DNA of 64,000 nt from assembly GCA_037133555.1 (NCBI GenBank), contig JBAXNW010000017.1, positions 1,530 to 65,529 of the forward strand, in the 5' to 3' direction. Position 1 is the stretch's first letter. Each line of letters opens with the position of its first letter. The translations under genes were made by a program, and so were the position numbers. Source of the DNA: Bacteroidota bacterium (GTDB lineage: Bacteria > Bacteroidota > Bacteroidia > Bacteroidales > JACABE01). Positions 7,910 to 26,700 of this stretch are shown in pieces. The notes beneath the pieces are model-generated. The model saw only the letters and a program-made list of their open reading frames with translations, did no database searches and had not been told where the DNA came from.

Positions 7910-8869
7910 ATGCATTTAAAAATCAGAACGAAAGTACTTATGGGAATTCTTTTCCTATTTATTGAATTTCTCATTATTGGTGTTATGAGTATCTATTATT
8001 TCTCGTCCATTAAAAATAGCACTGAATTGATGATTAAAAACAATTATCATTCAGTACAATATGCAGAGAATATGATACAGGCCATTGATGATGCCCATAC
8101 TGCGGTTGCTTCATCATTTTTAAACAAATTTTATCATTCCGACAATAACTCAATACTGCTCTCTTTCGCTAAATTTGAAGAGAATCTCAACAAGGAAGAA
8201 AAAAACATTACAGAATACGGAGAAAAAGACTTGACTCAATCTATCCGTCAAAAATACGTTAGGTATAAATCACTATCAACTACTCCGAATATTGATTCAA
8301 TAACAGAAAAACTAAATTACTATACATTAAATGTTTTGCCGGTTTTTAATGAACTAAAAGCTAAAATATTTACAATATCTACCTTGAATATGCAGGCGAT
8401 CATTCAAAAAAATGAGAACTTAAATTTAATGGTAAATAATATTTACAGAAACCTGATGATAGTAATGACACTTTGTTTTGTTTTTACTTTTTCATTTATG
8501 TTTAATTTCCCCAGTTATATCGCTCAGCCTGTCAATGAAATAACTGAAAAAATTAAAGAAATTGCCAATAAAAACTATAAAAGCCGTATAAAAATTTCAA
8601 GCCAGGATGAATTTAAAGATTTAGCTGAAGCCTTTAATTTTATGGCCGAAAGATTGGAGGAAAATTGCAATGCCGAGAAACTCGAAAAACAAATCTTTGT
8701 CCAAGAAGAAAGTATAGATAATAACTTAGTGCTTCAAAATATTCAGGCCTTGCTAACTTCAGTAAGAATTCTTATTGAATCAATTTCGCTGAGTAATATG
8801 GATGAAAATCTAAAAACTCAGTCAGAAAATATTCGGAAAATTGAAGAAGAATTATCTAGAATAATTTAA
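7910..8869 (+). CDS. Membrane sensor protein: TM, four-helix periplasmic domain, TM, HAMP, coiled coil; no kinase domain
   Basis: Two hydrophobic segments; HAMP motif IAQPVNEITEKIKEIA...DEFKDLAEAFNFMAERL; no H-box. Confidence 0.75.
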   Translation: MHLKIRTKVLMGILFLFIEFLIIGVMSIYYFSSIKNSTELMIKNNYHSVQYAENMIQAIDDAHTAVASSFLNKFYHSDNNSILLSFAKFEENLNKEEKNITEYGEKDLTQSIRQKYVRYKSLSTTPNIDSITEKLNYYTLNVLPVFNELKAKIFTISTLNMQAIIQKNENLNLMVNNIYRNLMIVMTLCFVFTFSFMFNFPSYIAQPVNEITEKIKEIANKNYKSRIKISSQDEFKDLAEAFNFMAERLEENCNAEKLEKQIFVQEESIDNNLVLQNIQALLTSVRILIESISLSNMDENLKTQSENIRKIEEELSRII

Positions 8870-8966
8870 TCACTAACACACTGAGATTAACAGTTCATGT
8901 TTTAAAAAGCTGAAAGCATCAACTGATTTATTTGAAAGATTTTTTTTAAGCGAATAAAAGATTTAC

Positions 8967-8974
8967 TACTTTTG
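8967..8974 (+). promoter_or_regulatory. -7 promoter box 5 nt upstream of the Cys/His-rich leader gene
   Basis: TACTTTTG-tagcg-ATG. Confidence 0.65.
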
Positions 8975-8979
8975 TAGCG

Positions 8980-9426
8980 ATGAAAAAAATAACAGCCTAT
9001 TTGATAAGCTTTATGGCTATTGCAGTTTTTCTGGTTTCTTCAACCGGGATAAGCTATGTTATACATCATTGTTCAGCCAATCATACCGAAGAAATCCGCT
9101 TATTTACAAGTGATTATCAATGTTCGCACGAGCTATCAAACCTTTGTTGTGCCGATAAAAATGAAAAAGCAATACATCACGAATGCAGCTTCAATAAAAA
9201 CCATCATTGCTGCAAAAATACAAAAGGTTATTTTAAAATTGCTGACGATTATACCGTAAACGTTTTTAAAACAAGCATTACGCCCGTTTTTTCATTTATT
9301 TCAACTTCTTTTCTTTTTACAGCAAAGTCAATACAATCAAGTTTTCAAATTTGCAATTCCAACAGTCCTCCAACATCTCAATCCGTTCAGGATTTTTTAA
9401 GCCTTCACTCACAATTTCGTATTTGA
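8980..9426 (+). CDS. Cys/His-rich exported small protein (HYC_CC_PP-like), first gene of the metal-efflux operon
   Basis: N-terminal hydrophobic segment, HHC, CC x2, HHEC, NSPP, C-terminal FRI; paralog at 22236. Confidence 0.8.
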   Translation: MKKITAYLISFMAIAVFLVSSTGISYVIHHCSANHTEEIRLFTSDYQCSHELSNLCCADKNEKAIHHECSFNKNHHCCKNTKGYFKIADDYTVNVFKTSITPVFSFISTSFLFTAKSIQSSFQICNSNSPPTSQSVQDFLSLHSQFRI

Positions 9427-9645
9427 TATACTGCTGAGTAGTATTTAAATGCTTAAATTTTTGCTTTCAAAAAAGATTTTATCTTATTGATGTTTAATTT
9501 ATTATTTAGATGATATACTCATTACGCTTTCTGTAATATTTTGTCATGCTTTAGGTTTTTTGTGGTCGTTCCAAAAATCTAAAATCAGCTTTCCGGACAA
9601 TATTAAAAATAAACCTGAATTCAGCAATTTGTTAATTTTCAGTAT

Positions 9646-12600
9646 ATGATAGAAAAAATCATAAAATTTTCGATAAATAATAAACTTATTATTGGGCTTT
9701 TTGTAGTTGCGCTCATCGCTTGGGGCGTTTATTCTCTTAAAAATTTGCCCATAGATGCAGTTCCAGATATTACCAACAATCAGGTGCAAATTATTTCAAT
9801 TGCACCGACACTGGCCGCTAATGAGGTAGAGCAGTTCATTACTGCTCCAATAGAAGTTTCTGTAGCCAATATCCCCGATAAAGTAGAACTTCGCTCTATT
9901 TCGCGTTTGGGTTTATCGGTTGTAACTGTAGTTTTTAAGGACAATGTTGATATGTACTGGGCCAGGCAGCAGATTTCTGAAAGAATCAAAGAAGCGGAAG
10001 AGCTTATACCTGCAGGTGTTACAACTCCTCAGATGGCTCCGATTTCAACCGGCTTAAGCGAAATTTATCAATATGTTTTACATGTTAAACCGGGCTATGA
10101 AAAGAAATTCGATGCCATGCAGTTGCGCACGATACAGGACTGGATTGTACGTCGTGAAATGCTTGGAACGCCTGGCGTAGCTGACGTAAACAGTTATGGT
10201 GGCTTCCTTCAGCAATATGAAGTCTCGGTGAATCCTGAGCAGTTAAAAGCAATGGATATTAGCTTACCAGAGATATTTCAAGCACTTTCCAAAAACAATC
10301 AAAATACAGGAAGTGCCTATATCGATAAAAAACCCCAGGCTTATTTTATCAGAGGTATTGGTTTGGTAACATCCATAGACGATATTGAAAACATTGTCGT
10401 AAAAACAACCCACGAAGGTTTGCCTGTTTTAATCAGTGACGTTGCAAAAGTGCAATTCGGCAGTGCGCCACGTTACGGTGCTTTTATTGTGGATACTACC
10501 GGCGAAGCTGTTGGGGGAGTGGTGATGATGCTCAAAGGCAAGAATGCTTCAGAAGTAATAGATGGTGTAAAAGAAAGAATCAAACTCATAGCTAAATCAT
10601 TACCGGAAGGTGTTGAAATTGATGCTTTTTACGACCGTACCGAATTGGTGGACCGTGCTGTAGGTACTGTGTCCAGAAATCTGATTGAGGGTGGTTTAAT
10701 CGTAATTTTTATTTTGGTACTCTTGTTGGGTAATTTAAGGGCTGGTCTCATAGTGGCTTCTGTGATACCTTTGTCCATGCTTTTTGCCATTTCACTGATG
10801 AAGTTGTTTGGTGTTTCAGGCAATTTAATGAGTCTGGGTGCCATTGACTTTGGATTGATCGTTGATGGGGCTGTTATTATTGTGGAAAGCGTGGTACATC
10901 GGATCACGCAAAGCAAAACCCATCATACCGGGATTAAAATGCTAAGCCGTAAGCAAATGGATAGCGAAGTCTTTAATTCAGCCAAAAGAATGATGACATC
11001 CGCAACTTTCGGCCAGGTAATCATCCTTATTGTTTATTTACCTATTTTGGCACTGGTTGGCATCGAAGGTAAAATGTTTCGTCCAATGGCTGAAACCGTA
11101 GGTTTTGCAATATTGGGTGCATTGATACTTTCACTTACTTACGTTCCTGTTGCTTCCGCTTTGTTCCTCAGCAGAAAAACAGCATATAAACCCACATTCT
11201 CTGACAAAATCATGAGAGGGCTTCACAAAGCTTTCGATCCTTTGCTGGATTTCTCATTAAAGCATAAAATTTCGGTTATTTCAACTTCAGTCATCCTCTT
11301 TCTTTCGAGCCTCATATTGTTTAATTCCCTCGGTGGTGAATTTATCCCTACTTTAGAGGAAGGAGACCTTGCAGCAGGCGTTATGACCCTTCAGGGTGGT
11401 TCTTTGTCCAACACCATTGAAACGGTCGAAAAAGCCAATAAGATATTAATGTCAAAGTTTCCTGAAATAGAACATGCCATCTGCAAAATAGGCACTGGGG
11501 AAATACCAACCGATCCTACGCCCATGGAAACCGGCGATTACATCTTTGTCATGAAAGACAAAAAAGAATGGCGCAATGCCAGCAGTCGTGAAGAAATGAT
11601 GGAAAAAATGCAGTCAGAATTATCTGTACTAAAAGGAGTGGTATTTACCCTTCAACAGCCTATTCAGATGCGTTTCAACGAATTGATGACGGGTTCCAAG
11701 CAAGATGTTGCCGTGAAAATTTTTGGTGATAATTTGACAACCCTGGCTTCCAATGCAGATGAAGTTGAAAAGCTCATTGCAAATGTTGCGGGAGTGGAGG
11801 AGATCAATGTCGAAAAAGTTACAGGTTCAGGACAGGTTCAGATCAATTATGACCGCAAAAAAATCGCACAATATGGATTAAATATCGAAGACATCAATCT
11901 GTTGTTGAAGACTGCATTTGCCGGGAGCAGCGCAGGAGTGGTGTATGACGAAGAAAAAAGATTCGATCTGGTAGTGCGTTTTAATAAAGATTTTAGGAAC
12001 GATATAGGCTTTATAAAAAACCTTTACATCCCTTTACCGAATGGCAATCAGATTTCATTGGATCAGGTGGCCAGTGTTGAAATTAAATCAGGTACGGCCC
12101 AGGTGAGCCGCGAAAGCACCAAACGAAGAATTACCGTTAGTTTTAATGTCCGCAACCGGGATGTACAGTCGGTAATCAAAGAAATTCGAACTAAATTGGA
12201 TGCTGGCTTAAAGCTTACTCCCGGATATTATATTACTTATGGGGGGCAGTTCGAAAATCTTGTAGCTGCTAACAAAAGGTTGTCGATAGCGGTACCGATA
12301 GCCTTGTTGTTGATATTCATACTTTTATTCTTTGCTTTCAGATCATTCAAACAAACCCTTCTCATTTATTCGGCGGTGCCGCTTTCGTTGATCGGTGGCA
12401 TTTTGGCATTGTACCTCAGAGGGATGAATTTCAGTATTTCAGCGGGTGTAGGCTTCATTGCTTTATTCGGTGTTGCCGTGCTGAATGGCATAGTGCTGAT
12501 AGCCGAATTTAACCGTTTGGAGAAAGAAGAAGAAATGACAGATATTTATGAAAGGGTTAAGCAAGGTATCAAATCACGCTTCCGTCCTGTGCTTATGACA

Positions 12601-14010
12601 GCAGCTGTTGCATCATTGGGCTTTTTACCGATGGCCTTGTCTTCCTCTGCCGGAGCAGAAGTTCAGAAACCCTTGGCAACAGTTGTAATTGGTGGCCTTA
12701 TTTCAGCAACCCTATTGACATTGATTGTACTGCCCGTACTTTATGTCCTCTTTTCAGGAAAACGACGAAATAAAAAGCTTAATCTTCCAACAACTACCTT
12801 AATGCTTTTGTTGTTTTTAGTTTTAGGTTTTCAACAAACTGCGAAATCACAATCAATACAAACTCCAATCTACACTTTAGATCAGGCGATACATCAAGCA
12901 TTGGTTAATAACGGCGCTGTTAAATCGGCGACTTTACAGCTCGAATACCAGCAAAAGCTTAAAACGGCAAGCTGGGAATATCAAAATACGAATCTGGAAT
13001 ATGTTTATGGACAGACCAATTCTTATGCAAAAGATCAAAACTTTACAATTTCTCAGCCCTTACCCTCTGTTTTTCAGAATATCGCTCGTTCAAAGCTAGC
13101 CGGGGCATTTGTAAAAAGTGCAGAATTTGGTGTTTCGCTTTCAAAAGCCGAAATCGTCAGCGAGGTAAAAACAGTTTATTTTCAACGCTTGTACAATTTC
13201 TCAAAGCTGAAATTACTCATTTACCAGGATTCACTTTCTATGAGTTTATTGAAAGCTGCTGAATTGAAAACTTCAAAAGGTGAAAGTCCTTTACTCGAAA
13301 AGGTAAGTGCTGAGAGCCGTTCAATGGAGATTAAAATGCTGATCAATCAATTAAAATCGGATGTCATCATCTGTTCTGAAAAGCTTCAAGTACTGATGAA
13401 TACCAAGGCTCCGGTTCAGATTGCTGATACCGCCTTGTATAAACTTGATTTTAGCTTTATTTTTGATAGTTCAGCCGTTAATATGAATCCTTCATTGGCG
13501 ATGATGAAACAGCAGTTAATTATCAGCGAACGTGAAACCCAACTGGAAAAAATGAAGTTTATACCTGATTTTTCTGTCGGCTATTTCAATCAGTCCAATA
13601 AAGAGCTCAACAGCGACTATCGTTTTACAGGCGTTCAGATTGCTGCTTCCATACCGATTTTATTCTTTTCTCAATCTGCCAAAATACAGTCAGCTAAAGT
13701 CAACCAACAAATTGCACAAACAAATTATGAGTACTACTGTGCATCAACTAAGGGTGAACTTAATATGCTTCTACAGGAATACCAGAAGTTAAAGGCCAGT
13801 ATTGATTATTACGAGAAGAATGCAATCAGGCAATCCGATTTGATGATAAAACATTCAGGTAAGAGTTACAGATCAGGAGATATTAATTACCTGGAATATG
13901 TGTTGATACTTGATAAAGCCCTTGAAATCAAATCGGCCTATTTACTAACGATGTTGCAGTTCAACCAATCCATCATCGCCATTGAAAAATTGTCAGGTAA
14001 AATAAAATAA
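9646..14010 (+). CDS. czcA: CusA/CzcA-family heavy-metal RND pump fused to a C-terminal TolC-like outer membrane factor
   Basis: LPIDAVPDITNNQVQI, MSLGAIDFGLIVDGAVIIVE, RPVLMTA..ASLGFLPMA, GAEVQKPLATVVIGG; extra ~400-aa OMF-like C-terminus. Confidence 0.93.
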   Translation: MIEKIIKFSINNKLIIGLFVVALIAWGVYSLKNLPIDAVPDITNNQVQIISIAPTLAANEVEQFITAPIEVSVANIPDKVELRSISRLGLSVVTVVFKDNVDMYWARQQISERIKEAEELIPAGVTTPQMAPISTGLSEIYQYVLHVKPGYEKKFDAMQLRTIQDWIVRREMLGTPGVADVNSYGGFLQQYEVSVNPEQLKAMDISLPEIFQALSKNNQNTGSAYIDKKPQAYFIRGIGLVTSIDDIENIVVKTTHEGLPVLISDVAKVQFGSAPRYGAFIVDTTGEAVGGVVMMLKGKNASEVIDGVKERIKLIAKSLPEGVEIDAFYDRTELVDRAVGTVSRNLIEGGLIVIFILVLLLGNLRAGLIVASVIPLSMLFAISLMKLFGVSGNLMSLGAIDFGLIVDGAVIIVESVVHRITQSKTHHTGIKMLSRKQMDSEVFNSAKRMMTSATFGQVIILIVYLPILALVGIEGKMFRPMAETVGFAILGALILSLTYVPVASALFLSRKTAYKPTFSDKIMRGLHKAFDPLLDFSLKHKISVISTSVILFLSSLILFNSLGGEFIPTLEEGDLAAGVMTLQGGSLSNTIETVEKANKILMSKFPEIEHAICKIGTGEIPTDPTPMETGDYIFVMKDKKEWRNASSREEMMEKMQSELSVLKGVVFTLQQPIQMRFNELMTGSKQDVAVKIFGDNLTTLASNADEVEKLIANVAGVEEINVEKVTGSGQVQINYDRKKIAQYGLNIEDINLLLKTAFAGSSAGVVYDEEKRFDLVVRFNKDFRNDIGFIKNLYIPLPNGNQISLDQVASVEIKSGTAQVSRESTKRRITVSFNVRNRDVQSVIKEIRTKLDAGLKLTPGYYITYGGQFENLVAANKRLSIAVPIALLLIFILLFFAFRSFKQTLLIYSAVPLSLIGGILALYLRGMNFSISAGVGFIALFGVAVLNGIVLIAEFNRLEKEEEMTDIYERVKQGIKSRFRPVLMTAAVASLGFLPMALSSSAGAEVQKPLATVVIGGLISATLLTLIVLPVLYVLFSGKRRNKKLNLPTTTLMLLLFLVLGFQQTAKSQSIQTPIYTLDQAIHQALVNNGAVKSATLQLEYQQKLKTASWEYQNTNLEYVYGQTNSYAKDQNFTISQPLPSVFQNIARSKLAGAFVKSAEFGVSLSKAEIVSEVKTVYFQRLYNFSKLKLLIYQDSLSMSLLKAAELKTSKGESPLLEKVSAESRSMEIKMLINQLKSDVIICSEKLQVLMNTKAPVQIADTALYKLDFSFIFDSSAVNMNPSLAMMKQQLIISERETQLEKMKFIPDFSVGYFNQSNKELNSDYRFTGVQIAASIPILFFSQSAKIQSAKVNQQIAQTNYEYYCASTKGELNMLLQEYQKLKASIDYYEKNAIRQSDLMIKHSGKSYRSGDINYLEYVLILDKALEIKSAYLLTMLQFNQSIIAIEKLSGKIK

Positions 14011-14022
14011 ACGCTTGCAATA

Positions 14023-14055
14023 AACGCTGAAAGGGTTCAAAGGCCTGTCAGCGTT
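14023..14055. repeat. REP-like palindrome (CTGACAGG/CCTGTCAG family)
   Basis: AACGCTGAAAGG..CCTGTCAGCGTT; related copy at 61140-61171. Confidence 0.6.
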
Positions 14056-14084
14056 ACTATAATAATAAATAAAAAACATAAATC

Positions 14085-14753
14085 ATGAACCCCAACGGAA
14101 TAGATCAATCTCAAAAGAAAAGCTTGTTGAAACTGGCTTTTGGCTTAGGTGTTTTTACCATTGTTTATAACATCATCGAAGGTATGGTTTCAACCTATTT
14201 CGGATATGTGGATGAAACATTGACCTTGTTCGGATTTGGTGTAGATAGCTTTATCGAAGCCCTTTCAGCCATCGGTATCCTCAATATGATTGTTCTGATC
14301 AGAAACAATGCTTATCAAACAACTTCAAATTTTGAAAAAACAGCATTGAGGATTACAGGCTATTCGTTCTATATATTGTCAGTAGGACTTGTTGTTTCAG
14401 CTGCAATTAACTTTTTTACCGCCAGTAAGCCCCATACTACGCTGTGGGGAATTTATATTTCCTTAATTTCTATCGCAATTATGCTGGTGCTGGCTGTATG
14501 GAAATTTCGGATTGGTAAAAAATTAAATTCAGATCCTATTGTTGCTGATGCAAAATGCAGCGTTGTATGTATTTATATGTCTATCGTCTTATTATTGGCA
14601 AGTAGTATCTATGAATTAACTCATTTTGCCTATATCGACATCATTGGATCCTTAGGCCTGGCATTCTTTTCATTGAGGGAAGGAAAAGAATGTTTCGAAA
14701 AAATTAAAACTGGGAAACAATGTGCATGCGGTAATGATAAAAAATGTAAATAA
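14085..14753 (+). CDS. Cation diffusion facilitator-like transporter (TM domain only) with Cys-rich tail
   Basis: YNIIEG, FGFGVDSFIE, IVADAKC motifs; about 6 TM; C-terminal CACGNDKKC. Confidence 0.8.
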   Translation: MNPNGIDQSQKKSLLKLAFGLGVFTIVYNIIEGMVSTYFGYVDETLTLFGFGVDSFIEALSAIGILNMIVLIRNNAYQTTSNFEKTALRITGYSFYILSVGLVVSAAINFFTASKPHTTLWGIYISLISIAIMLVLAVWKFRIGKKLNSDPIVADAKCSVVCIYMSIVLLLASSIYELTHFAYIDIIGSLGLAFFSLREGKECFEKIKTGKQCACGNDKKCK

Positions 14754-14779
14754 AATATGAATCTTTAAAATCTTTGATA

Positions 14780-15949
14780 ATGAAAACAAAAATACTAATC
14801 TTATCCATCTTATTAAGCCTGACAGTGATCAGTTGCAAAAATAAAAACGAAGCCACTGAAGAACATGAGGTGTTACCTCCAAATACCGTTGAAATGAACG
14901 ATGCTCAAACTAAATCTGCCGGCATTGAAATGGGTGATTTTGAACAAAAAAAACTGAGCAGTGAGCTCAATGTAAATGGCCTGGTAAATGTTTTGCCTCA
15001 GGATCTGGTTTCCATCTCTGCCATCATGGGTGGATTTATTAAAAAGATAGCCTTGGTGCAGGGGAGTCCTGTTGCGAAAGGCGAAGTGATAGCTGTGATT
15101 GAAAATCCCGATTTTATCGAATTACAGCAGAACTATCTCGAAAGCAAATCAAAGCTTGAATACGCCGAAGCCGAACACAATCGGCAGCATGAGCTGAACA
15201 ATGAAAATGTAAATGCTGCCAAAACCTATCAATTGGCTGTATCTGAATACCGAAGCCTGCAATCGAAAGTGTATGCCCTTGAACAGAAATTAAAAATGAT
15301 AGGTATGGATGCCAAAAAGCTGAAGGTTGAAAATATTTCAGGTTCACTTTCCATTGTTTCGCCCATCAACGGTTATGTAAAAACAATCAATGTAAATGTA
15401 GGCAAATATGTAAATTCTACCGATGTTATCTTAGAGATAGTGAATACCCAAAACTTAAGCCTGGAGCTTAGCATTTTTGAGAAAGATATTGATAAAGTCA
15501 GCATTGGACAGAAAATAAGCTTTACGATTCCAACAAAACCTGAAAATATACAGCATGCGGTGATTTATCAGGTTGGTAAAGCCATTAATGCCGATAAAAC
15601 CATCAAGGTATATGCCAATGTTGATCATGAAATTAAGACCTTAATGCCGGGTATGTATGTAAATGCCATCATCTCTACAAAAGACGATGCAGTGACGGCC
15701 CTGCCCGATGAAGCAGTACTTTCTTTTGAAGACAAGAATTATATTTTTATCTTTTTCGAGAAAAAGAAAGAAGGTGATAAATTCGTGAGCTTGTATAAAT
15801 TGATAGAAGTAAAAAAAGGCATTTCGGACGATGGCTTTACGGAAGTTATTTTACCCAAGGATTTTGATAAAATAAAAAACAAAATTGTAATCAAAGGAGC
15901 GTATAACTTGCTTTCGGCCATGAAGAATGCTGGGGATATGGCGTGTTAG
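14780..15949 (+). CDS. czcB: RND periplasmic adaptor (CzcB-like lipoprotein)
   Basis: Lipobox VISC; G..V.KG and SPINGYV lipoyl-like halves; LMPGMYV. Confidence 0.88.
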   Translation: MKTKILILSILLSLTVISCKNKNEATEEHEVLPPNTVEMNDAQTKSAGIEMGDFEQKKLSSELNVNGLVNVLPQDLVSISAIMGGFIKKIALVQGSPVAKGEVIAVIENPDFIELQQNYLESKSKLEYAEAEHNRQHELNNENVNAAKTYQLAVSEYRSLQSKVYALEQKLKMIGMDAKKLKVENISGSLSIVSPINGYVKTINVNVGKYVNSTDVILEIVNTQNLSLELSIFEKDIDKVSIGQKISFTIPTKPENIQHAVIYQVGKAINADKTIKVYANVDHEIKTLMPGMYVNAIISTKDDAVTALPDEAVLSFEDKNYIFIFFEKKKEGDKFVSLYKLIEVKKGISDDGFTEVILPKDFDKIKNKIVIKGAYNLLSAMKNAGDMAC

Positions 15950-16320
15950 GGAATTAGGAATTAGGAATGATGAATTGTGAAAATTTGAAGGTTTAATAAT
16001 TTAGGAAGGGTTTTAGTTGTATAAAATAAATTTTTAAATAGAATAATACTTTAAATCCGGATTGAATTATTGCATACATTTGCTGATTATTAGAATACCT
16101 GATTTGCTTCAAAATATTGAAAAGCCTTAGCTTTTTTTCCTGCTAAAGTAATCTCGCAAATTAATTATACAACAGTAATCATAAGTTATAAAACTCACGC
16201 TATGGCGTGGGCTTTACTTATTTGTTGTGTGGGTTTCGCGAGAACCTCTTTAGCAAATTTAGTTTAGTTTCCACGCCTTTCTTTTTTCACACGCTACAAG
16301 ATAAAAAAAAACTAAAAAAC

Positions 16321-19017
16321 ATGAAAAAAATTTTCTTTTTAACGATTGCATTATTGATAGTAAATATTGCGAATGCACAATGGCAAAAAATGGATGGTCC
16401 TTATACAGGTTTACCAATGTATTGCATAACTGCAAACGCAGGAAATGTATATGCTGGTTCAAATTATGGGGTTTATAAAACCTCAAACAATGGCCAAAGT
16501 TGGGATTCAATTGGTCTAACAAATTCAATGGTAACTGCACTTTTAGTAAACGGAAGCAATATTTATGCAGGTACTACAAATAAATTATATTTATCAAGCA
16601 ATAACGGCATTAATTGGAGCAGTTTAGGAATGAATACCAAAGTAAATTCTATCCTTATAAGCAGCAACCGTTTATTTGTAGGCACACCTTATGGAATATA
16701 TATGACAACAAATAATGGCGTGAATTGGGCTCCAAAAGATACCGGGATATCACAAAAAAACATTACCTCTATGGCTATATGCGGAACTAAAATGTATGCA
16801 GGAACTTATGATAAAGGCGTGTATGTCTCAGTTAATTATGGAAGTAGCTGGTCGGTAGATACGAATGGTCTTTATGATTTAAATATTAATACTTTAACTG
16901 TAAATGGCAATGACATATTTGCCGCTACCATTAATGGATTGTTTCATCAATCAGTAAATGGAACAAGCTGGATAGCTGACACAGCAGGATTGACGAATAA
17001 GTACATAAGTTCTGTTGCTGTCAGCAGCGATAGTAGCATATATGCAGGTACTAAAGCAGGTTTATTTATTTCAAGAAACTATGGAATAAATTGGATGGCT
17101 GATACTTCAGGCATAAAAAAAAATTATAACACGAATCTTTATACCATTGCAATAAGCGATACCAATATTTTTTTGAATTATCACAATACAAATTCTGATG
17201 AAGGAAGTCTTTTCCTTTCTACAAATAAGGGAAATTCTTGGAATTCGATAAATAAGAATATAGTTAAACCGCGTATTTATAAATTGTACAAAAAAGCGAA
17301 TGTTCTATTTGCTGGTAGCAGAGTGGATGGTTTGTATAAATCAACAGATGAAGGGCAAAGCTGGACTTCGGCAAATAATGGAATGCCATTAATTAATGAA
17401 ATAAGAACAATTTTGTCATCCGGAAATAATATTTATCTGGCAACATCGAATGGTGTATTCACTTCAGCAAACGATGGGATTAGCTGGACTGCATTAAATA
17501 ATGGCTTACCTGAATTATTTGCAACATCATTGAGTATTAGCGGAAATAACTTTTATGTTGGATTAAGTTCTTCAGGTGTTTATAAATCAACAAATAACGG
17601 GATTAATTGGTCTCTTAGTGGATTGTCAAATACCAATATGTTATCATCCGCCGCTTCAGGCACGACCGTTTATGCTGGTAGTCAAGGTATTGCTATTTAT
17701 AGATCATCAAACAGTGGAGGAAGTTGGTCACAATGGGGTAATGGGATTAATTCTAGTGTTGTTGAAAGAATATCAATATTTGGCAGCAATGTTTTTGCCT
17801 TTTCTGTTGGAACCCTTTATAAATCCAATATATTATATAACGGTTGGAATATGGTAAGTTCAGCTTTTGCAGGTTCCGATTTTGCTGATATAGTGTATGA
17901 AAACAATATCCATTATGCACCTTCTCAAGATGGTAGAATTTTTTTCAGTAGAAATGCTACAGTCAGTTGGGATTCTATCAAACCTAACAATACGATTAAT
18001 ATAGCTTCGTGTATAGTTAAAGATTCAAACTTCTTTTATGCAGGATGTGTTGGTACATATACTAACACTGGCGGACTTTGGCGGTTTTCTTTAAAAGACA
18101 CTATTACAGCTTCTGCCAACCCAGTAAATGCAGGAACTACTTCAGGAAGTGGTGTCTATAATATAACGGATAGCTGTTCTGTTAATGCTCACTCGAATGC
18201 TGCTTATACTTTTGTAAACTGGACTGAGAATGCTGTTGTGGTGAGTACTGATTCAATTTATAAGTTTATTGTAAAAGCAAAAAGGAATCTTATAGCCAAT
18301 TTTATACCAATGCAATTTACAGTTACAACAACATCAAACCCTACAAATGCAGGTACAACTATTGGTTCAGGCACTTACAATATAAACCAAAGCTGTACAG
18401 TAAAAGCGAGCGCAAATTTGGGTTTTGCCTTTGTTAATTGGACGGAAAATAGCAATATAGTGTCTACAGATACAAATTATATTTTTACCATTACGGCAAA
18501 CAGAAATTTGCAGGCTAATTTTACGCCCAATCAATTTAGCATCACAACATCCGTCTATCCTTTATTAGGAGGGAGTACTACAGGAAGTGGCTTCTACAAC
18601 ATCAATCAATCTTGTTTATTAAAAGCTATACATGCTCCAAATTACAATTTCACTAACTGGACAGAAAATGCGAATGTAGTTAGTGTAGATTCTAATTATA
18701 GCTTTACAGTTATAGCAAACAGAAACCTGATTGCTAATTTTAGCTTAATTCTGGGAATATCCGGTAATTCTATCAGTAATTCAATAAATATTTATCCAAA
18801 TCCAGCCAAAGACAATCTGGTAATTGAATTACATAAAGCTGAAAATTTGAACAAGACTTGCATCACTATTTACAATATACAGGGCAAAGAGATGAAAAAG
18901 TTCAGCCTAAGTCATTCCAAAACGGAGATTGATATCAGCGATTTTGCTACTGGTCTTTATGTTGTCAAAGTGATGAATGAAACTGAATCCTTGCTGAGAA
19001 AATTCTTTAAGGAATAG
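16321..19017 (+). CDS. T9SS-secreted surface protein: BNR/Asp-box-like propellers, 3 InlB-B/Flg_new-like repeats, type A CTD
   Basis: Signal ANA-Q; many S.N.G..W repeats; three ~75-aa (F.NWTEN..VS.D..Y.F..A.RNL.ANF) repeats; IYPNPA...GLYVVKV...KFFKE CTD. ATG 16321 preferred. Confidence 0.88.
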   Translation: MKKIFFLTIALLIVNIANAQWQKMDGPYTGLPMYCITANAGNVYAGSNYGVYKTSNNGQSWDSIGLTNSMVTALLVNGSNIYAGTTNKLYLSSNNGINWSSLGMNTKVNSILISSNRLFVGTPYGIYMTTNNGVNWAPKDTGISQKNITSMAICGTKMYAGTYDKGVYVSVNYGSSWSVDTNGLYDLNINTLTVNGNDIFAATINGLFHQSVNGTSWIADTAGLTNKYISSVAVSSDSSIYAGTKAGLFISRNYGINWMADTSGIKKNYNTNLYTIAISDTNIFLNYHNTNSDEGSLFLSTNKGNSWNSINKNIVKPRIYKLYKKANVLFAGSRVDGLYKSTDEGQSWTSANNGMPLINEIRTILSSGNNIYLATSNGVFTSANDGISWTALNNGLPELFATSLSISGNNFYVGLSSSGVYKSTNNGINWSLSGLSNTNMLSSAASGTTVYAGSQGIAIYRSSNSGGSWSQWGNGINSSVVERISIFGSNVFAFSVGTLYKSNILYNGWNMVSSAFAGSDFADIVYENNIHYAPSQDGRIFFSRNATVSWDSIKPNNTINIASCIVKDSNFFYAGCVGTYTNTGGLWRFSLKDTITASANPVNAGTTSGSGVYNITDSCSVNAHSNAAYTFVNWTENAVVVSTDSIYKFIVKAKRNLIANFIPMQFTVTTTSNPTNAGTTIGSGTYNINQSCTVKASANLGFAFVNWTENSNIVSTDTNYIFTITANRNLQANFTPNQFSITTSVYPLLGGSTTGSGFYNINQSCLLKAIHAPNYNFTNWTENANVVSVDSNYSFTVIANRNLIANFSLILGISGNSISNSINIYPNPAKDNLVIELHKAENLNKTCITIYNIQGKEMKKFSLSHSKTEIDISDFATGLYVVKVMNETESLLRKFFKE

Positions 19018-19054
19018 CTTATTTCTCAAGAGGCTGTCTCATATGCTCTCCGCC

Positions 19055-19183
19055 GTTTAGTGTAAGTTTTCTGCCATTTAGTGAATGCTTTACGTTGTTT
19101 AGTGAATACTTTACGCCATTTAGTGAATCGCTTACGCCATTTAGTGAATCGTTTACGCCTGCATAATGCTTACACTGAATTGG
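19055..19183. repeat. 21-bp tandem array (5 units) plus one partial inverted unit
   Basis: Consensus RTTTAGTGAATnnTTTACGCC at 19055, 19076, 19097, 19118, 19139; inverted GCTTACACTGAATTGG at 19168-19183. Confidence 0.85.
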
Positions 19184-19286
19184 GATTAGTATTAATTAAA
19201 AGCCTTAAAAGCTTTATAATACGAGTAATGAGATTACAGCGGTTATAAATTATGTTACTGAACTGATTATTTAAATAATAATTTTT

Positions 19287-19476
19287 AATTTATTGGGTGT
19301 TAAAAATATGTATATTTGTATAAATATAAGCAATGAAATTTACATCTCAACACATAGGAAATATCAGATGTTTTTATACCACAGAGAAAACTGAGATAAA
19401 ACTAAATTTTCTCAGTGCATCTCAATGATCTCTGTGTCTCTGTGGTTTTATTTTTTTTGCATTATCTTAAAAAAGA
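19287..19476 (+). repeat. ~190-bp direct repeat, copy 1 (hairpin-containing)
   Basis: Aligns along its length with 21941-22128; nested inverted repeats ACCACAGAG/CTCTGTGGT and ACTGAGA/TCTCAGT. Confidence 0.88.
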
Positions 19477-19567
19477 AGCATTATCATCAAATTGGAGGAA
19501 GAATTGAGTATGGTGGCTGAAGATAAAGCAGAATATGAAACAGAGGAAAACCAAAATTAAAAAATGA

Positions 19568-19705
19568 ACGAGCAAGCAAAAATATCCAAATAACAACTTT
19601 ATAAAAGATAAAATTAGGCAACAACTTCAAATTTTAAGGGACAAAAGAATTATTGAATTTACAACACGTGGTAACTATAAAAAAATAGGATATGGAAACA
19701 TTTAA
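19568..19705 (+). pseudogene. dpnC: 3' fragment of DpnI-type (GmATC-specific) restriction endonuclease, winged-helix end
   Basis: Manual translation KYPNNNFIKDKIRQQLQILRDKRIIEFTTRGNYKKI closely matches the recalled DpnI C-terminus; in-frame stop just upstream and no start. Confidence 0.8.
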
Positions 19706-19862
19706 AATTGAAATAAAAGAAACGTTATTTAAAATTATTGAAATTGAATCAAATTCTGTTGAAGCTGCCATCCTTGAAGTTGAAAAGCTTTATAAATCAG
19801 AAGAAATTGTTTTAGACTGGAATGATTATGTAGATACTGAAATTTTACAACTAAATTCTTAG
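19692..19862 (+). CDS. dpnD: DpnD/PcfM-like small protein (56 aa, not in ORF track)
   Basis: METFKIEIKETLFKIIEIESNSVEAAILEVEKLYKSEEIVLDWNDYVDTEI; overlaps the dpnC fragment end as in dpnCD. Confidence 0.8.
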   Translation: METFKIEIKETLFKIIEIESNSVEAAILEVEKLYKSEEIVLDWNDYVDTEILQLNS

Positions 19863-19874
19863 AAATCAAATAAA

Positions 19875-20876
19875 ATGAACGAACTTCCATCAAACAACTC
19901 AGATTTTATTTTATATACTTCTTCGGACGGTGAAGTAAGAGTAGATGTGTTCATTAACAGTGAAACTGTTTGGCTTACACAGAAAGCAATGGCACAGCTA
20001 TTCGGGTGTACTTCTGACAATATTTCTCTTCACTTGAAAAATATATTTAACGATAGTGAATTAGATAAAGATTCAGTTACCGAGGAATTCTCGGCAACTG
20101 CATCAGATGGAAAAAAATACAACACTAAATTCTATAATCTTGATGCGATTATTGCAATTGGTTATCGTATTAATTCGAAACAAGCTACTCAATTCCGTAT
20201 TTGGGCAACAAAAACCTTAAAGGAATACATTATAAAAGGATTTGTGTTGGACGATAAGAGGTTAAAACAAGGTGGTCAAGTGTTCGGAAAAGATTATTTT
20301 GAAGAATTACTTGAAAGAATTCGAGAAATCCGAGCTTCAGAAAGGAGATTTTACCAAAAAATAACAGATATTTATGCACAATGTAGCATAGATTATAATG
20401 CAAAATCTGATTTGACTTTAAACTTCTATAAAACAGTTCAAAATAAACTACATTGGGCAATTACAGGAAGTACAGCAGCTGAAATTATTGATAAAAGAGC
20501 AGATGCAGACAAACCAAATATGGGTTTGACAACTTGGAATAATTCACCATCTGGAAAAATTTTAAAGTCGGATACAAGTATTGCCAAAAATTATTTACAA
20601 GAGAAGGAAATCAGAGAGCTTAATCGATTGGTCGAATTGTATTTGAATTTTGCAGAACTTCAAGCAGAAAGAAATATTCCAATGAAAATGATTGAGTGGA
20701 TTGAAGTATTAGATTCATTTTTAAAAATCAATAGATACGACTTGCTTAATAATTTGGGAAGAATATCACACGAAGATGCTATTAAAAAAGCATCATTAGA
20801 ATATGAGAAATTTAGAATTGTCCAGGACCAAAAGTTTATTTCAGATTTCGACAATGAAACTAAGAAACTAACATAA
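19875..20876 (+). CDS. rhuM: Virulence RhuM family protein
   Basis: ETVWLTQKAMAQLF, YNLDAIIAIGYRINS..ATQFRIWAT, IREIRASERRFYQKITDIYA. Confidence 0.92.
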   Translation: MNELPSNNSDFILYTSSDGEVRVDVFINSETVWLTQKAMAQLFGCTSDNISLHLKNIFNDSELDKDSVTEEFSATASDGKKYNTKFYNLDAIIAIGYRINSKQATQFRIWATKTLKEYIIKGFVLDDKRLKQGGQVFGKDYFEELLERIREIRASERRFYQKITDIYAQCSIDYNAKSDLTLNFYKTVQNKLHWAITGSTAAEIIDKRADADKPNMGLTTWNNSPSGKILKSDTSIAKNYLQEKEIRELNRLVELYLNFAELQAERNIPMKMIEWIEVLDSFLKINRYDLLNNLGRISHEDAIKKASLEYEKFRIVQDQKFISDFDNETKKLT

Positions 20877-20880
20877 ATAT

Positions 20881-21666
20881 GATATGGTTTTTGATGACCC
20901 GCCTTACTTTCTATCAAACAATGGATTATCGATACAAAGCGGAAAGATTGTTAGCGTAAACAAAGGCGATTGTGACAAATCGGGAGGTTTTAAATACATT
21001 AATGACTTTAACCGTAATTGGATTTCATTAATTCGTGAAAAAATGAAAGAAGATGCCACAATTTGGATTAGTGGCTCAATGCACAATATTTTTTCAATAG
21101 GTCAGATCTTAAATGAATTAGGTTTTAAAATACTTAACATAATCACTTTGGAAAAGACAAACCCGCCACCAAACTTTTCTTGTCGATTTTTCACATATTC
21201 TACCGAACAAATTATTTGGGCAAGGAAATCTGAAAAAGTGCCTCATTACTATAACTACGAATTAATGAAACAATTGAATGGCGACAAAAAAATGAAAGAT
21301 GTTTAGAGACTTCCAGCTATTGCACCCTGGGAGAAATCTTGTGGAAAACATCCAACACAAAAAACACTTTCCGTTTTAACCCGTCTTATTTTAGCATCAA
21401 TAAAACCAAATGCTTGGATTATTGATCCTTTTACAGGAAGCAGTACTACAGGTATTGCAACCAATCTTGCAAATAGAAGATTTCTGGGAATTGACTAGTA
21501 AATTGACTTTTTGAATATCAGCAAGAACAGAAAAACTGAAATTGACAAAAAAAGTATCGCAACTTCTTTTCGCCAAAAGATTGGTGGATTTAATGATCCG
21601 AAAGAACTTGAACTTTTCCTGTTTCAATTGCCAAAAACAGAATACAAAACGGAATTTAATTTATGA
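20881..21666 (+). pseudogene. DpnA-like beta-class N6/N4 DNA methyltransferase pseudogene
   Basis: DPPYFLSN, HPTQK, DPFTGSSTTG motifs in one frame; N-terminus missing; internal stops at 21304 (TAG for Trp) and ~21496-21501 (TAG TAA). Confidence 0.88.
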
Positions 21667-21781
21667 GTTTACCAAATATGACTTCAAAAGGAAATCAGCC
21701 ATTGGCAGTATTTCCTGTAAATGGAAAATATGTTTTAGCTGTTTCATAAACAGAAGCGATTCAAACAATTTTTTAAATTGA

Positions 21782-21898
21782 GGGCTAAAGCCCATGTTAA
21801 TTGTAAATTCTTAGTCCCCGACTTAAAAGTCGGGGCTATTCATTAGCCCCGTCCTTTAGGTCGGGGTGAAAATAAGGAAAATGAACAGGGCTTTAGTC
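21782..21898. repeat. REP/BIME-like composite palindrome
   Basis: GGGCTAAAGCCC, CCCCGACTTAAAAGTCGGGG, CCCCGTCCTTTAGGTCGGGG, GGGCTTTAGTC arranged symmetrically. Confidence 0.75.
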
Positions 21899-21940
21899 AA
21901 GATTTTTAAATATGATTTATTTTATAGGATGCTGATTATA

Positions 21941-22128
21941 AATTTAATGGGTGTTAAAATATGTCTATTTGTATTAAAATAGCCAATGAAATTTACATCC
22001 CAATACCTAGGAAATATCAGTTGTTTATATAACACAGAGATCACTGAGCTAAAACCAAATTTTCTCAGTGCATCTCAATGATTTCTGTGTCTCTGTGGTT
22101 TTATATTTTTTACATTATTTAAAACAGA
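21941..22128 (+). repeat. ~190-bp direct repeat, copy 2
   Basis: Colinear with 19287-19476, with scattered substitutions. Confidence 0.88.
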
Positions 22129-22222
22129 TTGTAAATCATTCAAAACAAGCTATTTTATTCAGCTTAAACGTTAAGAATACATAATTAACCAACGATTAAC
22201 AACTTTATATGTGTTTGAATGT

Positions 22223-22230
22223 TATTTTTG
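22223..22230 (+). promoter_or_regulatory. -7 promoter box 5 nt upstream of the second Cys/His-rich leader gene
   Basis: TATTTTTG-tgccg-ATG. Confidence 0.65.
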
Positions 22231-22235
22231 TGCCG

Positions 22236-22721
22236 ATGAAAAAATTACTAACCTATATTGTGAGCTTTACTGCTCTCATTTTGTTTCTGGTATCTTCTAC
22301 CGGAATTAGTTTTGTGATTCATCATTGTTTTACTGCCCAAACAGAACATATTCAATTTTTTGCGAATACTTACAAATGTGAAACTGAAACAGAAGCTGTA
22401 AAACTAAAACCCAGCTGCTGTTGTGCAAAACATGCTGCAGCCCACGAAGATAAAAGCCTTCTTCATTTAGGGAAAAGCGATTGTTGCAAAAACACCTATC
22501 AGTTTTTAAAAATGACCTATCAGTACGAAAATACTCTTACTGTCATTCAACAAATTGTCGCTCATACTCCATTTATCTCAAGACTTATAGCAGTTTCCAG
22601 CAACAGTATTGAAACATTAACACATCATCAGCTCTACCATCCGCCTCCCTTGCAGATGTTTGGTAAATACCTGATTCATTTTATTCATAATCTTAAGATA
22701 CCTTTCCCTTCTTATTGCTAA
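22236..22721 (+). CDS. Cys/His-rich exported small protein (HYC_CC_PP-like), paralog of 8980..9426
   Basis: MKK..FLVSSTGISFVIHHC, CCC, DCCKNT, LYHPPP; ATG 22236 aligns with the paralog start. Confidence 0.8.
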   Translation: MKKLLTYIVSFTALILFLVSSTGISFVIHHCFTAQTEHIQFFANTYKCETETEAVKLKPSCCCAKHAAAHEDKSLLHLGKSDCCKNTYQFLKMTYQYENTLTVIQQIVAHTPFISRLIAVSSNSIETLTHHQLYHPPPLQMFGKYLIHFIHNLKIPFPSYC

Positions 22722-22756
22722 ATTTAGTTTGCTTTAAGTTATGATTTTATTTTATT

Positions 22757-22855
22757 GAGATTCCTCGCTTTTGCTCGGAATGACAAAAATAACATCTGTC
22801 CATTAACTATTGCAGACTTTATTTGCTTTTGTCATGCTGACAAAGAAAGCATCTC
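22757..22855. repeat. Inverted pair of REP-like elements (GAGAT..TGACA / TGTCA..ATCTC)
   Basis: GAGATTCCTCGCTTTTGCTCGGAATGACA (22757-22785) and TGTCATGCTGACAAAGAAAGCATCTC (22830-22855). Confidence 0.7.
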
Positions 22856-22944
22856 GAAAATATAAACAATTTGTATATTCATTTCTGATCCTACATAGCG
22901 TTTATTAAAAATAAGAATATTGTAATTAAATAATTATGAAATAA

Positions 22945-25387: not shown

Positions 25388-25756
25388 ATGAAACAAATCA
25401 ATGGTAAATTAATTGCAGTAATGCTTGCAGCTGCAATACTTTTGGGGCAGAATGTATATGCTCAGGTAAAAAAAGCTGATAAATACAGCGAAATTAAAAT
25501 TAAAACATCGGCTCAATGCGGCATGTGTAAGGAAACCATCGAAAAAGCCATGGCTTTTGAAAAAGGTGTAAAAACTTCTGATTTGAATGTTGATACAAAA
25601 GTTGTAACTGTAAAATATGACGCTGCTAAAACTTCACCTGAAAAAATCAGACTGGCTGTGAGTAAAGCAGGTTATGATGCTGATGATGTGAAAGCCGATC
25701 CTAAAGCATATAGCAAATTATCCCCCTGTTGTAAAAAAGACGGACATAAAAAGTAA
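25388..25756 (+). CDS. Exported heavy-metal-associated (HMA) domain protein
   Basis: Signal VYA-Q; CGMCKETIEKA; GY; AYSKLSPCC. Confidence 0.9.
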   Translation: MKQINGKLIAVMLAAAILLGQNVYAQVKKADKYSEIKIKTSAQCGMCKETIEKAMAFEKGVKTSDLNVDTKVVTVKYDAAKTSPEKIRLAVSKAGYDADDVKADPKAYSKLSPCCKKDGHKK

Positions 25757-25809: not shown

Positions 25810-25886
25810 GCTTTTTAGGTTTATCTTTCAGATATATATTGTTTTAAGATTTTAAGTTGAATGAATTAATAATAAAAAAAATAACG

Positions 25887-26663
25887 ATGAAAAAAATAAT
25901 ATTCTTTATAGCCACGGTATGTATTTCGTTTTTTGCATCGGCTCAGATTGCACCCAATTTCACCAGTAATGATTGTAATGGGACGAGTTATGATTTATAT
26001 TCCCAGCTCGATGCAGGGAAGGTAATTGTAGTTTGTTGGGTAATGCCTTGTTCTACTTGCGTTCCTGCCACAAAGACATCCTACAACGTTGTTCAGAGTT
26101 TTCTAACATCCAATCCAAACAAGGTATTTTTATACCTTTGTGATGATTATGGCGACACACCCTGTGCTTCCATAAATAGTTGGGCCAATGGGATCAGTGT
26201 TCCGGCATCAGCTTCTTCTTTGAGATTTTCAAATTCAGCAATCAACATGGCCAGTTATGGAGCTGTAGGTATGCCTAAAATTATTATTGTCGGAGGTAGT
26301 TCTCATAACATTCTTTACAGTGCAAACGTTAGTGTGGATGGACCAGCAATGCAGACAGTAATCAACAATGCATTGAATGCTAGCAGTGTTGAAGAATCAA
26401 TAAGTATTGCTTCAGACTTAAGTATTTTTCCTAATCCTGTAAATAATACCTTGAATTTAACAGTTTCAATGGCAAAGCAATCAAATGCTACAATTGAAAT
26501 ATATGATATGCTGGGAAATAAAGTATACACAAATACTGATAAATTTTCGAAAGGCATCCACAACATCGAAATCAATACAGGTAAATTTGACAATGGTATT
26601 TATTTTGTGAAATTAAATGATAGTTTTAAAAGTAAAATATTAAAATTCAACGTAAGTCATTAA
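25887..26663 (+). CDS. Thioredoxin/AhpC-like fold protein with T9SS type A CTD
   Basis: APNFT..D..G, GKVIVVCWVMPCSTC, cis-Pro-like GMP, IFPNPV...GIYFVKL CTD. Confidence 0.78.
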   Translation: MKKIIFFIATVCISFFASAQIAPNFTSNDCNGTSYDLYSQLDAGKVIVVCWVMPCSTCVPATKTSYNVVQSFLTSNPNKVFLYLCDDYGDTPCASINSWANGISVPASASSLRFSNSAINMASYGAVGMPKIIIVGGSSHNILYSANVSVDGPAMQTVINNALNASSVEESISIASDLSIFPNPVNNTLNLTVSMAKQSNATIEIYDMLGNKVYTNTDKFSKGIHNIEINTGKFDNGIYFVKLNDSFKSKILKFNVSH

Positions 26664-26700
26664 TTTTCTTGCAGTTTAATAATAATTAAATACCATTTAT

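Follow-up and report, generated by a model that had tools for sequence, protein, structure and literature searches.

Two small genes within a 64,000-nucleotide (nt) stretch of a Bacteroidota bacterium genome (contig JBAXNW010000017.1, positions 1,530 to 65,529 of the forward strand; hereafter the window) belong, on sequence criteria, to HYC_CC_PP (NF047658)/DUF8199 (PF26622), a family without assigned function, and each stands at the head of a metal operon. The regulation of metal homeostasis is poorly understood in Bacteroidota, where translation starts without Shine-Dalgarno sequences. Our overall interpretation, which we regard as evenly balanced between right and wrong, is that these genes (leader gene 1, encoding P0001, and leader gene 2, encoding P0002; Table 1) are cis-acting first cistrons whose translation opens the start site of the next gene, possibly in response to extracytoplasmic metal. 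The protein anatomy, the promoter position, the RNA helix and the gene neighbourhood described below were computed directly.

P0001 and P0002 are paralogs (39% identity across 131 residues, E 5e-21, BLASTP), and they share an N-terminal MKK, a hydrophobic stretch, the segment SSTGIS[YF]VIHHC (in full FLVSSTGIS[YF]VIHHC), CC pairs including CCKNT, and a late Pro-Pro (PP). Of these, MKK, FLVSSTGIS[YF]VIHHC, CCKNT and the late PP had been recognized in both open reading frames (ORFs) by an earlier interpretation of the window made from its letters alone (the sequence-only reading). A Bacteroidota family named HYC_CC_PP, which that reading had mentioned, does exist: the NCBIfam model NF047658 matched P0001 with 36.0 bits, above its cut-off of 28, and P0002 with 23.1 bits, below it; P0002 is tied to P0001 by the BLASTP match and by all motif columns, and both proteins contain the name-giving motifs of the family, namely H-[HY]-C behind the anchor, CC and a PP late in the sequence. 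Neither protein had a match in the local Pfam copy; precomputed assignments placed PF26622, named DUF8199 in the ESM Atlas, on 8 of 10 homologs of P0001, and the ESM Atlas clusters were 84-100% DUF8199, with "secreted protein" as the automatic cluster name. Within the literature library searched, no publication mentioned HYC_CC_PP, PF26622 or DUF8199, and none dealt with an arrest peptide and copper in Bacteroidetes. A profile built from the first matches retrieved 683 representatives (50% identity) at E<=1e-3, the best 150 of which were 107-173 amino acids (aa) long. NF047658 had matches in 116 of the 401 genomes sampled from the phylum (above the cut-off in 106 of the 116), but in none of 87 from a single large family (f25) and none of 14 control genomes. 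Leader copies often number one per operon, with up to 5 per genome.

For comparison among loci, 100 regions were picked by hand from the listed NF047658 matches and, together with the window, yielded 109 members by a profile built here; most genomes of an over-represented genus, extra genomes of sampled genera and the weakest matches were left out. Genes were called with a crude longest-ORF script, and neighbouring genes were identified by BLAST against genes of the window and Pfam-scanned representatives; all gene calls, start codons and folds are computational and come from custom crude scripts. As the regions were hand-chosen and the genomes are mutually related, the ratios reported below overstate independence.

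Both window leaders are preceded by a Bacteroidota -7 promoter box that is a perfect TAnnTTTG. In Flavobacterium johnsoniae, as described in PMC6847099, this box extends from -12 to -5 (T-12 to G-5) and lies 4-5 nt from the transcription start. Applying this geometry to leader gene 1 places the predicted start at 8979/8980, i.e., an mRNA leader of 0-1 nt, and the leader mRNA is thus probably leaderless. For P0002, a longer ORF from 22209 is possible, yet its start is upstream of the predicted transcription start. Across the survey, TAnnTTTG ended 2-10 nt before a possible start in 55 of 109 members, as compared to 30 of 800 when this lenient rule was applied equally to other genes at these loci; the downstream metal genes carried it at their start in 2 of 106 cases, and it fell inside the leader-to-gene spacer in 3 of 104. 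As TAnnTTTG is common in AT-rich DNA (117 matches in the window vs. 103 expected), the promoter case rests on the fixed position of the box and on these controls. The flavobacterial literature gives a proportion of 5.5% leaderless mRNAs in F. psychrophilum (transcription start site map, PMC9723704) and leaders of >10 nt for 87% of F. johnsoniae mRNAs; leaderless mRNAs are otherwise rare in flavobacteria.

On inspection of the predicted folds, a recurring outer helix was seen to join both ends of the spacer between the leader and the next gene. For duplexes folded between the stop region of the leader (-9 to +22) and the next gene's start region (-35 to +11), the mean energy was -12.3 kcal/mol, as compared to -7.7 kcal/mol for permuted partners and -8.8 kcal/mol for other same-strand gene pairs. 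Duplexes of <=-10 kcal/mol were formed by 61 of 87 leader loci vs. 363 of 1740 permuted and 71 of 217 other pairs, and duplexes of <=-13 kcal/mol by 44 of 87 vs. 109 of 1740 and 29 of 217, respectively. Of the 61 strong duplexes, 57 include the stop codon in the pairing and 32 the start codon. The helix sequences are wholly different between loci, with complementarity kept, and the helix precedes RND, TonB-receptor and HMA genes alike. The coding stretch between PP and stop showed no pairing signal with the post-stop region (-7.10 vs. -7.39 permuted) and weak pairing with the pre-start region (-8.46 vs. -7.16 permuted). Moreover, UGA is enriched as the leader stop codon (61 of 109 members vs. 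152 of 842 other genes). Closer relatives were represented by 13 loci analyzed from 14 named loci in Bacteroidales metagenome-assembled genomes (35-56% identity), nine of them of the P0001 type; in these nine, TACTTTTG is located 5 nt before the start in eight and 8 nt in one, the stop is UGA in all nine, an AUUUGAU/AUCAAAU helix occurs in most, and the next gene is CzcA in five and a TonB receptor in four. Where Shine-Dalgarno sequences are lacking, a start region free of structure is what initiation depends on (PMC6847099), and the helix therefore suggests that downstream translation is coupled to the end of the leader. Given the structures and their controlled statistics, we consider it likely that the downstream gene is efficiently translated only while a ribosome is on, or just past, the last leader codons.

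The gap between the leader and the next gene is long (median 97.5 nt, >=50 nt in 93 of 106 cases), as compared to the following junction (median 17 nt, >=50 nt in 21 of 103). Fold z-scores below -2 were obtained for 59 of 87 leader spacers and 80 of 217 control same-strand spacers; these scores are less strict because mononucleotide rather than dinucleotide shuffles were used. The sequence-only reading had described spacers of about 220 nt containing hairpins; both lengths agree with this description, and the hairpin at about 9550-9583 is part of the predicted fold, but the fold of spacer 1 as a whole is not exceptional (z -1.64, as compared to -2.60 for spacer 2). An Rfam search over 8800-23100 returned no credible family, only two sub-threshold snoRNA-like matches inside coding genes.

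That each leader is the first gene of a metal operon, another claim of the sequence-only reading, holds in the window, where an RND pump follows one and a TonB receptor with an HMA-domain protein follows the other (Table 1). In the survey, 106 of 109 members have a same-strand downstream gene. The first three downstream same-strand genes include RND efflux, with OEP and membrane-fusion genes, in 44 of 109 members, a TonB receptor, usually with HMA, in 34, and HMA/HMBD/DUF3347/P-type ATPase genes alone in 23; hence one or another of these gene kinds occurs in 101 of 109. The other 8 members, mostly not followed by metal-related genes, comprise single cases of OEP plus membrane-fusion, MbnP plus a MauG-like peroxidase, AhpC, cytochrome c and AraC-type genes as well as 3 without a same-strand downstream gene. 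Upstream, on the same strand and within 200 nt, there is no gene in 53 of 109 members and an unrelated or unnamed gene in 31 (ribosomal protein L20, polyprenyl synthase and integrase among those scanned).

An alignment of 160 sequences identified near-invariant positions, i.e., G23 (158/159), H29 (157/159), C31 (159/159), C48 (149/151), C56 (149/157), C57 (158/159), C77 (158/160) and C78 (160/160), and the two prolines of the PP are conserved to a similar degree (P130 154/159, P131 153/157). The conserved cysteines are thus C31, C48, C56-C57 and C77-C78, and no conserved CXXC was found in this alignment. The N-terminus starts with MKK, and then comes a hydrophobic helix, modelled at residues 2-22 (median 19-residue hydropathy maximum 2.13). 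An AlphaFold2 model based on a 130-sequence alignment (mean predicted local distance difference test score, pLDDT, 76.9) shows, in addition to this helix, strands at 24-31 and 36-41 (block means of pLDDT 87-93 for residues 1-50) and a third strand at 78-85 within a block of mean pLDDT 87; the Cys loops between the strands (block means 58-62) and residues 91-130 (60-71) are modelled with lower confidence, and a short helix is predicted at 136-143. Foldseek against the PDB found no structural relative at E<=0.001 and the best VIA-align wide Z was 2.4; no fold was assigned.

The C78-to-PP distance (measured to the first P), which we refer to as the ruler, has a median of 54 residues (interquartile range 54-55, range 50-61, n = 237), and the loops between the Cys groups vary (2-29 residues for C48-C57, 5-27 for C57-C78). 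The linker is at the same time the least conserved segment, with 0.69 bits per column as compared to 2.07 around the PP and 1.7 in the anchor. A second membrane helix in the linker was considered and rejected, as the median maximal 19-residue hydropathy is 0.88 and values >=1.6 occur in 11 of 228 sequences. The residue preceding the PP is P, S or A, never R-A, and PPP is found in 86 of 226 members. The sequence-only reading had asked whether the PP-to-stop distance is conserved; the distances cluster at 15-17 and at 20-23 residues to the C-terminus rather than at a single value. The short tail type (15-17 residues, 158 of 226, including P0001) ends in F-[LR]-I, with I as the last residue in 101 of 158, and the long type (>=19, mostly 20-23 residues, 68 of 226, including P0002) shows HQLKI followed by a proline-rich end. 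Proline occurs within the last 8 residues in 42 of 68 long-type vs. 1 of 158 short-type members, and 8 of the 68 long tails contain a second PP there. Conservation of the tail is at the amino-acid level, and its codons vary synonymously.

The sequence-only reading had proposed that the two proteins are analogues of the DUF2946 leaders, which include CruR and CutF. This analogy stands for the position at the head of metal operons, the long spacer, the near-invariant PP and a Cys-to-PP spacing as tight as that of CruR; it does not extend to family membership or to the placement of the PP, which is 15-23 residues from the C-terminus and not 3. DUF2946 membership was rejected as there was no PF11162 match, no CXXC/CXXXC and no RAPP or PPP about three residues from the C-terminus: a list of 25 Pfam families for 130 members (E<=10), none of them matching more than 6 members, did not include DUF2946, and genome G000 showed no six-frame PF11162 match at E<=0.01. 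By sequence comparison, the family is not a DUF2946 member; the design is shared and a sequence relation is undetectable. The shared design includes Cys ligands, a fixed Cys-to-PP spacing, the first position in metal operons, the long spacer and an export signal; for the latter, which characterizes DUF2946, hydropathy and the structural model point to an N-terminal signal here as well.

For CutF of Rhodobacter capsulatus, the preprint (10.1101/2025.02.05.636593) reports a copper-dependent ribosome stall at a C-terminal PPP, by which the stem-loop covering the start site of the next gene can be melted. Like CutF, the family described here comprises small exported first-gene products with Cys ligands, a PPP in the members counted above, and a helix hiding the next start site. 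Unlike CutF, it has CC pairs instead of CXXXC, its PP is set back from the end, and its helix begins at the stop codon; moreover, the host does not use Shine-Dalgarno sequences, the mRNA is predicted to be leaderless and RND efflux pumps are among the downstream genes. For CruR (Bp2923, Bordetella pertussis), PMC9426467 describes a CXXC 45 residues before RAPP, with the spacing kept to 1-2 residues, and Rho termination ahead of a TonB transporter. The export signal, the operons with TonB-dependent transporters, the conserved Cys-to-PP spacing and the long intergenic region are common to CruR and the present family, and the operon partners of the CruR family in the same source include MbnP/H-like proteins and AhpC, of which MbnP with a MauG-like protein and AhpC were each seen once here. 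Unlike CruR, with its RAPP three residues from the C-terminus and its use of Rho, the family lacks RAPP and a rut-like bias and has few terminators.

The phylum also contains DUF2946-like small ORFs, found in other classes (L132-L139, e.g. L135:1492-1824 on the - strand), with RAPP/RGPP 2-4 residues from the C-terminus, a membrane anchor and, in 5 of 7, a CxxC; 4 of 401 genomes were above the Pfam cut-off, and both families can occur in one genome at different loci (e.g. G138, G109). An hhalign comparison of our family with seven of the RAPP/RGPP proteins gave a probability of 55.7% over 19 columns. At the seven DUF2946-like loci, the stop-to-start duplexes were mixed, with 2 strong ones, in a set too small for interpretation.

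Among well-known arrest peptides, SecM, MifM and VemP (force-sensitive) and TnaC (termination arrest) have their last 17-20 residues conserved, a critical proline, a link to export, and control via mRNA structure or a UGA stop, and the usual arrest-peptide size is comparable to the PP-to-C-terminus module of 17-23 residues. The present family resembles them in its conserved end, its proline, its link to export and its UGA or mRNA structure; we claim no sequence similarity, and arrest is suggested by analogy only. SecM and TnaAB are also named in the CutF preprint.

A mechanism that would connect these features can be outlined as follows, with the coupling, the stalling, the metal sensing and the sign of the response being what we infer from them. 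The leader would represent the promoter-proximal first cistron of a metal-homeostasis operon and would act in cis, the RNA around its stop pairing with the start region of the next gene and providing translational coupling by unfolding. The hydrophobic anchor would direct the peptide co-translationally to the membrane, the small Cys/His-rich beta-sheet domain would emerge on the periplasmic side, and the 54-residue linker would span the ribosome tunnel and the translocon and end in the PP and the conserved tail; a constant length with unconstrained sequence is what such a mechanism predicts. Binding of metal to the exported domain, or its folding, would alter ribosome dwell at the PP or at the stop codon (often UGA) and would thereby set transporter output, by the same logic as in CutF and CruR but reached by an unrelated family. 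As the critical ribosome position is the stop codon, approx. 50 nt downstream of the PP codons, a stall at the PP cannot itself open the helix. Either a pause at the PP may delay arrival at the stop, with release as the "on" step, or the whole module from PP to C-terminus (17-23 residues) may act on termination at the stop codon.

That the peptide senses metal while ribosome-attached, as proposed by analogy with CutF and CruR, appears to us about as probable as its converse or somewhat less so; a PP that is invariant and often extended to PPP, the bias towards UGA and the presence of one copy per operon before unrelated transporters would all fit a sensor leader and, by this analogy, point the same way. 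Still more tentatively, HYC_CC_PP/DUF8199 may represent a phylum-wide class of sensor leaders independent of DUF2946, in which a leaderless mRNA encodes an exported nascent chain whose 54-residue ruler, ending in the PP, conveys the state of periplasmic metal, and dwell at the UGA end opens a stop-to-start helix gating RND, TonB-receptor or metallochaperone genes.

Several observations weigh against a sensor leader acting in cis. The PP lies approx. 50 nt upstream of the helix, and the RNA structure leaves its role in a switch unexplained. A metal-related gene is found upstream, on the same strand and within 200 nt, in 25 of 109 members (Porin_10 in 13, P-type ATPase in 6, MauE-HMA in 4, others in 2), 14 of which are without a consensus box; the leader gene is thus usually, but not always, first in its operon, which answers the question of the sequence-only reading whether the family always comes first. 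Thirteen neighbouring genes of approx. 187 aa form one BLAST cluster, of which the two members scanned (L039:11483-12049 and L043:5247-5828) are AraC-type HTH_18 proteins, one ending a leader-RND-OEP operon and the other directly following a leader; additional transcriptional control may therefore exist. One architecture precedes both efflux and presumed uptake genes, which is hard to reconcile with a single response sign. The sequence-only reading had suggested opposite signs on efflux and uptake, an idea that gains nothing from our data, as the same helix precedes RND, TonB and HMA genes and close relatives precede either CzcA or a TonB receptor. The genomes are related and hand-picked, and the gene calls, starts and folds come from crude scripts. 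Finally, the model assigns high confidence to a small domain made of residues 1-50 and the third strand, and the tail is conserved as protein, which fits a stable mature protein equally well.

Such a protein would be a membrane-anchored or secreted periplasmic Cys-rich metal binder (a chaperone, a buffer or a thiol/disulfide partner) acting in trans with the following transporter, and the helix would serve co-expression only; we consider this doubtful, though with an appreciable chance of being correct. In addition to the high pLDDT of the domain and the synonymous variation in the tail, this explanation is favored by the six invariant Cys and one His, by the "secreted protein" names of the Atlas clusters and by neighbours that include the periplasmic metal binders HMA, HMBD and DUF3347. 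On the other hand, it does not readily account for a low-confidence, low-conservation segment of approx. 45 residues whose length is fixed to about 2 residues across sequences of 20-30% identity, nor for a gene often present once per operon, and up to 5 times per genome, before unrelated transporter types; an ordinary structural gene would not be expected to show enrichment of UGA, a leaderless promoter or a long and structured spacer, and neither Foldseek nor VIA-align found a structural relative.

Transcription attenuation, in which the position of the leader ribosome would control Rho-dependent or intrinsic termination in the spacer rather than access to the start, is suggested by CruR, the closest functional analogue, which works via Rho (PMC9426467), and by the long and structured spacer. 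Terminator-like hairpins followed by a T run are, however, rarer in leader spacers than in controls (3 of 87 vs. 26 of 217); the two such sites in the second scanned region of the window both lie inside coding sequence, and spacer 1 has none. The spacers show no C-rich, G-poor (rut-like) bias (C 18.0% and G 14.5%, as compared to 17.4% and 15.7% in controls), and the partner-specific complementarity targets the start codon of the next gene. Attenuation thus appears improbable. We attach even less probability, i.e., a very small one, to an ordinary small gene in which AT-rich sequence and common ancestry would have produced box, helix and spacing incidentally. TAnnTTTG is indeed common in the window, AT-rich ends pair easily and the sampled genomes are kin; yet the box was found in 3.8% of matched same-locus controls vs. 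50% of members, duplexes of <=-10 kcal/mol in 21-33% of controls vs. 70% of members, and the helix sequences differ completely between loci while remaining self-complementary.

If a sensor leader acting in cis is the correct explanation, a functionally uncharacterised family found in roughly one quarter to one third of the sampled genomes would turn into a regulator amenable to testing, its parts being defined (the promoter box at the start codon, the Cys ligands, the ruler linker, the PP, the UGA stop and the stop-to-start helix), and many metal operons of the phylum would become recognizable by their leader, a gain for annotation. It would represent a second, independent invention of the CutF/CruR principle, i.e., a nascent chain sensing extracytoplasmic metal, with a leaderless mRNA, a stop-to-start helix and a long tail after the PP as its own features, and it would provide a general post-transcriptional switch in bacteria without Shine-Dalgarno sequences. 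New here are the box at the start, the box-free downstream gene, the terminator-poor spacer, the stop-to-start pairing, the UGA enrichment and the unrelated kinds of downstream genes.

Table 1. Leader genes of the window, their promoter boxes, spacers and helices, and the genes that follow them.
Feature	Position	Strand	Details
Bacteroidota -7 promoter box, leader 1	8967..8974	+	TACTTTTG; ends 5 nt before leader 1 ATG
Leader gene 1 (P0001, 148 aa, HYC_CC_PP/DUF8199)	8980..9426	+	anchor residues 2-22; H29-H30-C31; C48; C56-C57; C77-C78 (nt 9208-9213); P130-P131 in NSPP (nt 9367-9372); tail end SQFRI; stop UGA at 9424-9426
Helix 1, 5' strand	9415..9433	+	last three codons, UGA and 8 nt beyond; in minimum free energy and centroid fold; duplex -12.7 kcal/mol
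Spacer 1, 219 nt	9427..9645	+	no + strand -7 box, no terminator-like site, no Rfam match
Helix 1, 3' strand	9640..9655	+	covers RND gene AUG 9646-9648
RND efflux genes after leader 1	9646..15949	+	three genes
CzcA-type RND permease with fused OEP/TolC-like C-terminus	9646-14010	+	CusA/CzcA model TIGR00914, 1157 bits
CDF-like protein	14085-14753	+	
Membrane-fusion protein	14774-15949	+	
Bacteroidota -7 promoter box, leader 2	22223..22230	+	TATTTTTG; ends 5 nt before leader 2 ATG
Leader gene 2 (P0002, 161 aa, divergent long-tail member)	22236..22721	+	HHC, CCC and CC, then PPP in HPPP (nt 22641-22649); tail HNLKIPFPSYC; stop UAA
Helix 2	22710-22716 with 22910-22916	+	3' strand 29-35 nt before receptor AUG
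Spacer 2, 223 nt	22722..22944	+	structured, z -2.60; no + strand -7 box
TonB-dependent receptor after leader 2	22945-25260	+	
HMA-domain protein after leader-2 receptor	25388-25756	+	

Among the genes of the first operon, the RND permease is a single ORF of 1454 aa, with ACR_tran at residues 5-1036 and an OEP/TolC-like outer-membrane-factor region at approx. 1077-1451; in three scanned relatives, RND (1235-1274 aa) and OEP (405 aa) are separate genes, and the window ORF may reflect a true fusion, the loss of a stop codon or faulty assembly. A protein of 319 aa with a 4HB_MCP sensor module and HAMP, and with no recognisable output domain, is encoded at 7910-8869, in the same orientation as leader 1 and 110 nt upstream of it. 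At 13 survey loci, the gene immediately upstream of the leader, in the same orientation, is a Porin_10 gene (approx. 680 aa); most of these loci continue with an HMA-domain gene after the leader and two with a TonB receptor instead, and they represent another recurrent kind of operon, the third.

The interval separating the metal operons of the window contains a RhuM-family gene and a truncated N6/N4 DNA methylase (140 aa, profile positions 3-129 of 221), together at 19875-21306, and then about 900 nt without an ORF of 100 aa (21307-22208); this stretch may be the remnant of a mobile or defence element. A mini-ORF of three codons (ATG AAA TAA, 22936-22947) overlaps the start of the TonB receptor (...TAAATG...), maybe by chance in AT-rich DNA. 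Downstream of the second operon, a T9SS sorting-domain protein (268 aa) and a 344-aa protein without a Pfam family are encoded at 25857-27735; relatives of these genes adjoin leader/TonB-receptor clusters in two other genomes, where they are located upstream of the leader.

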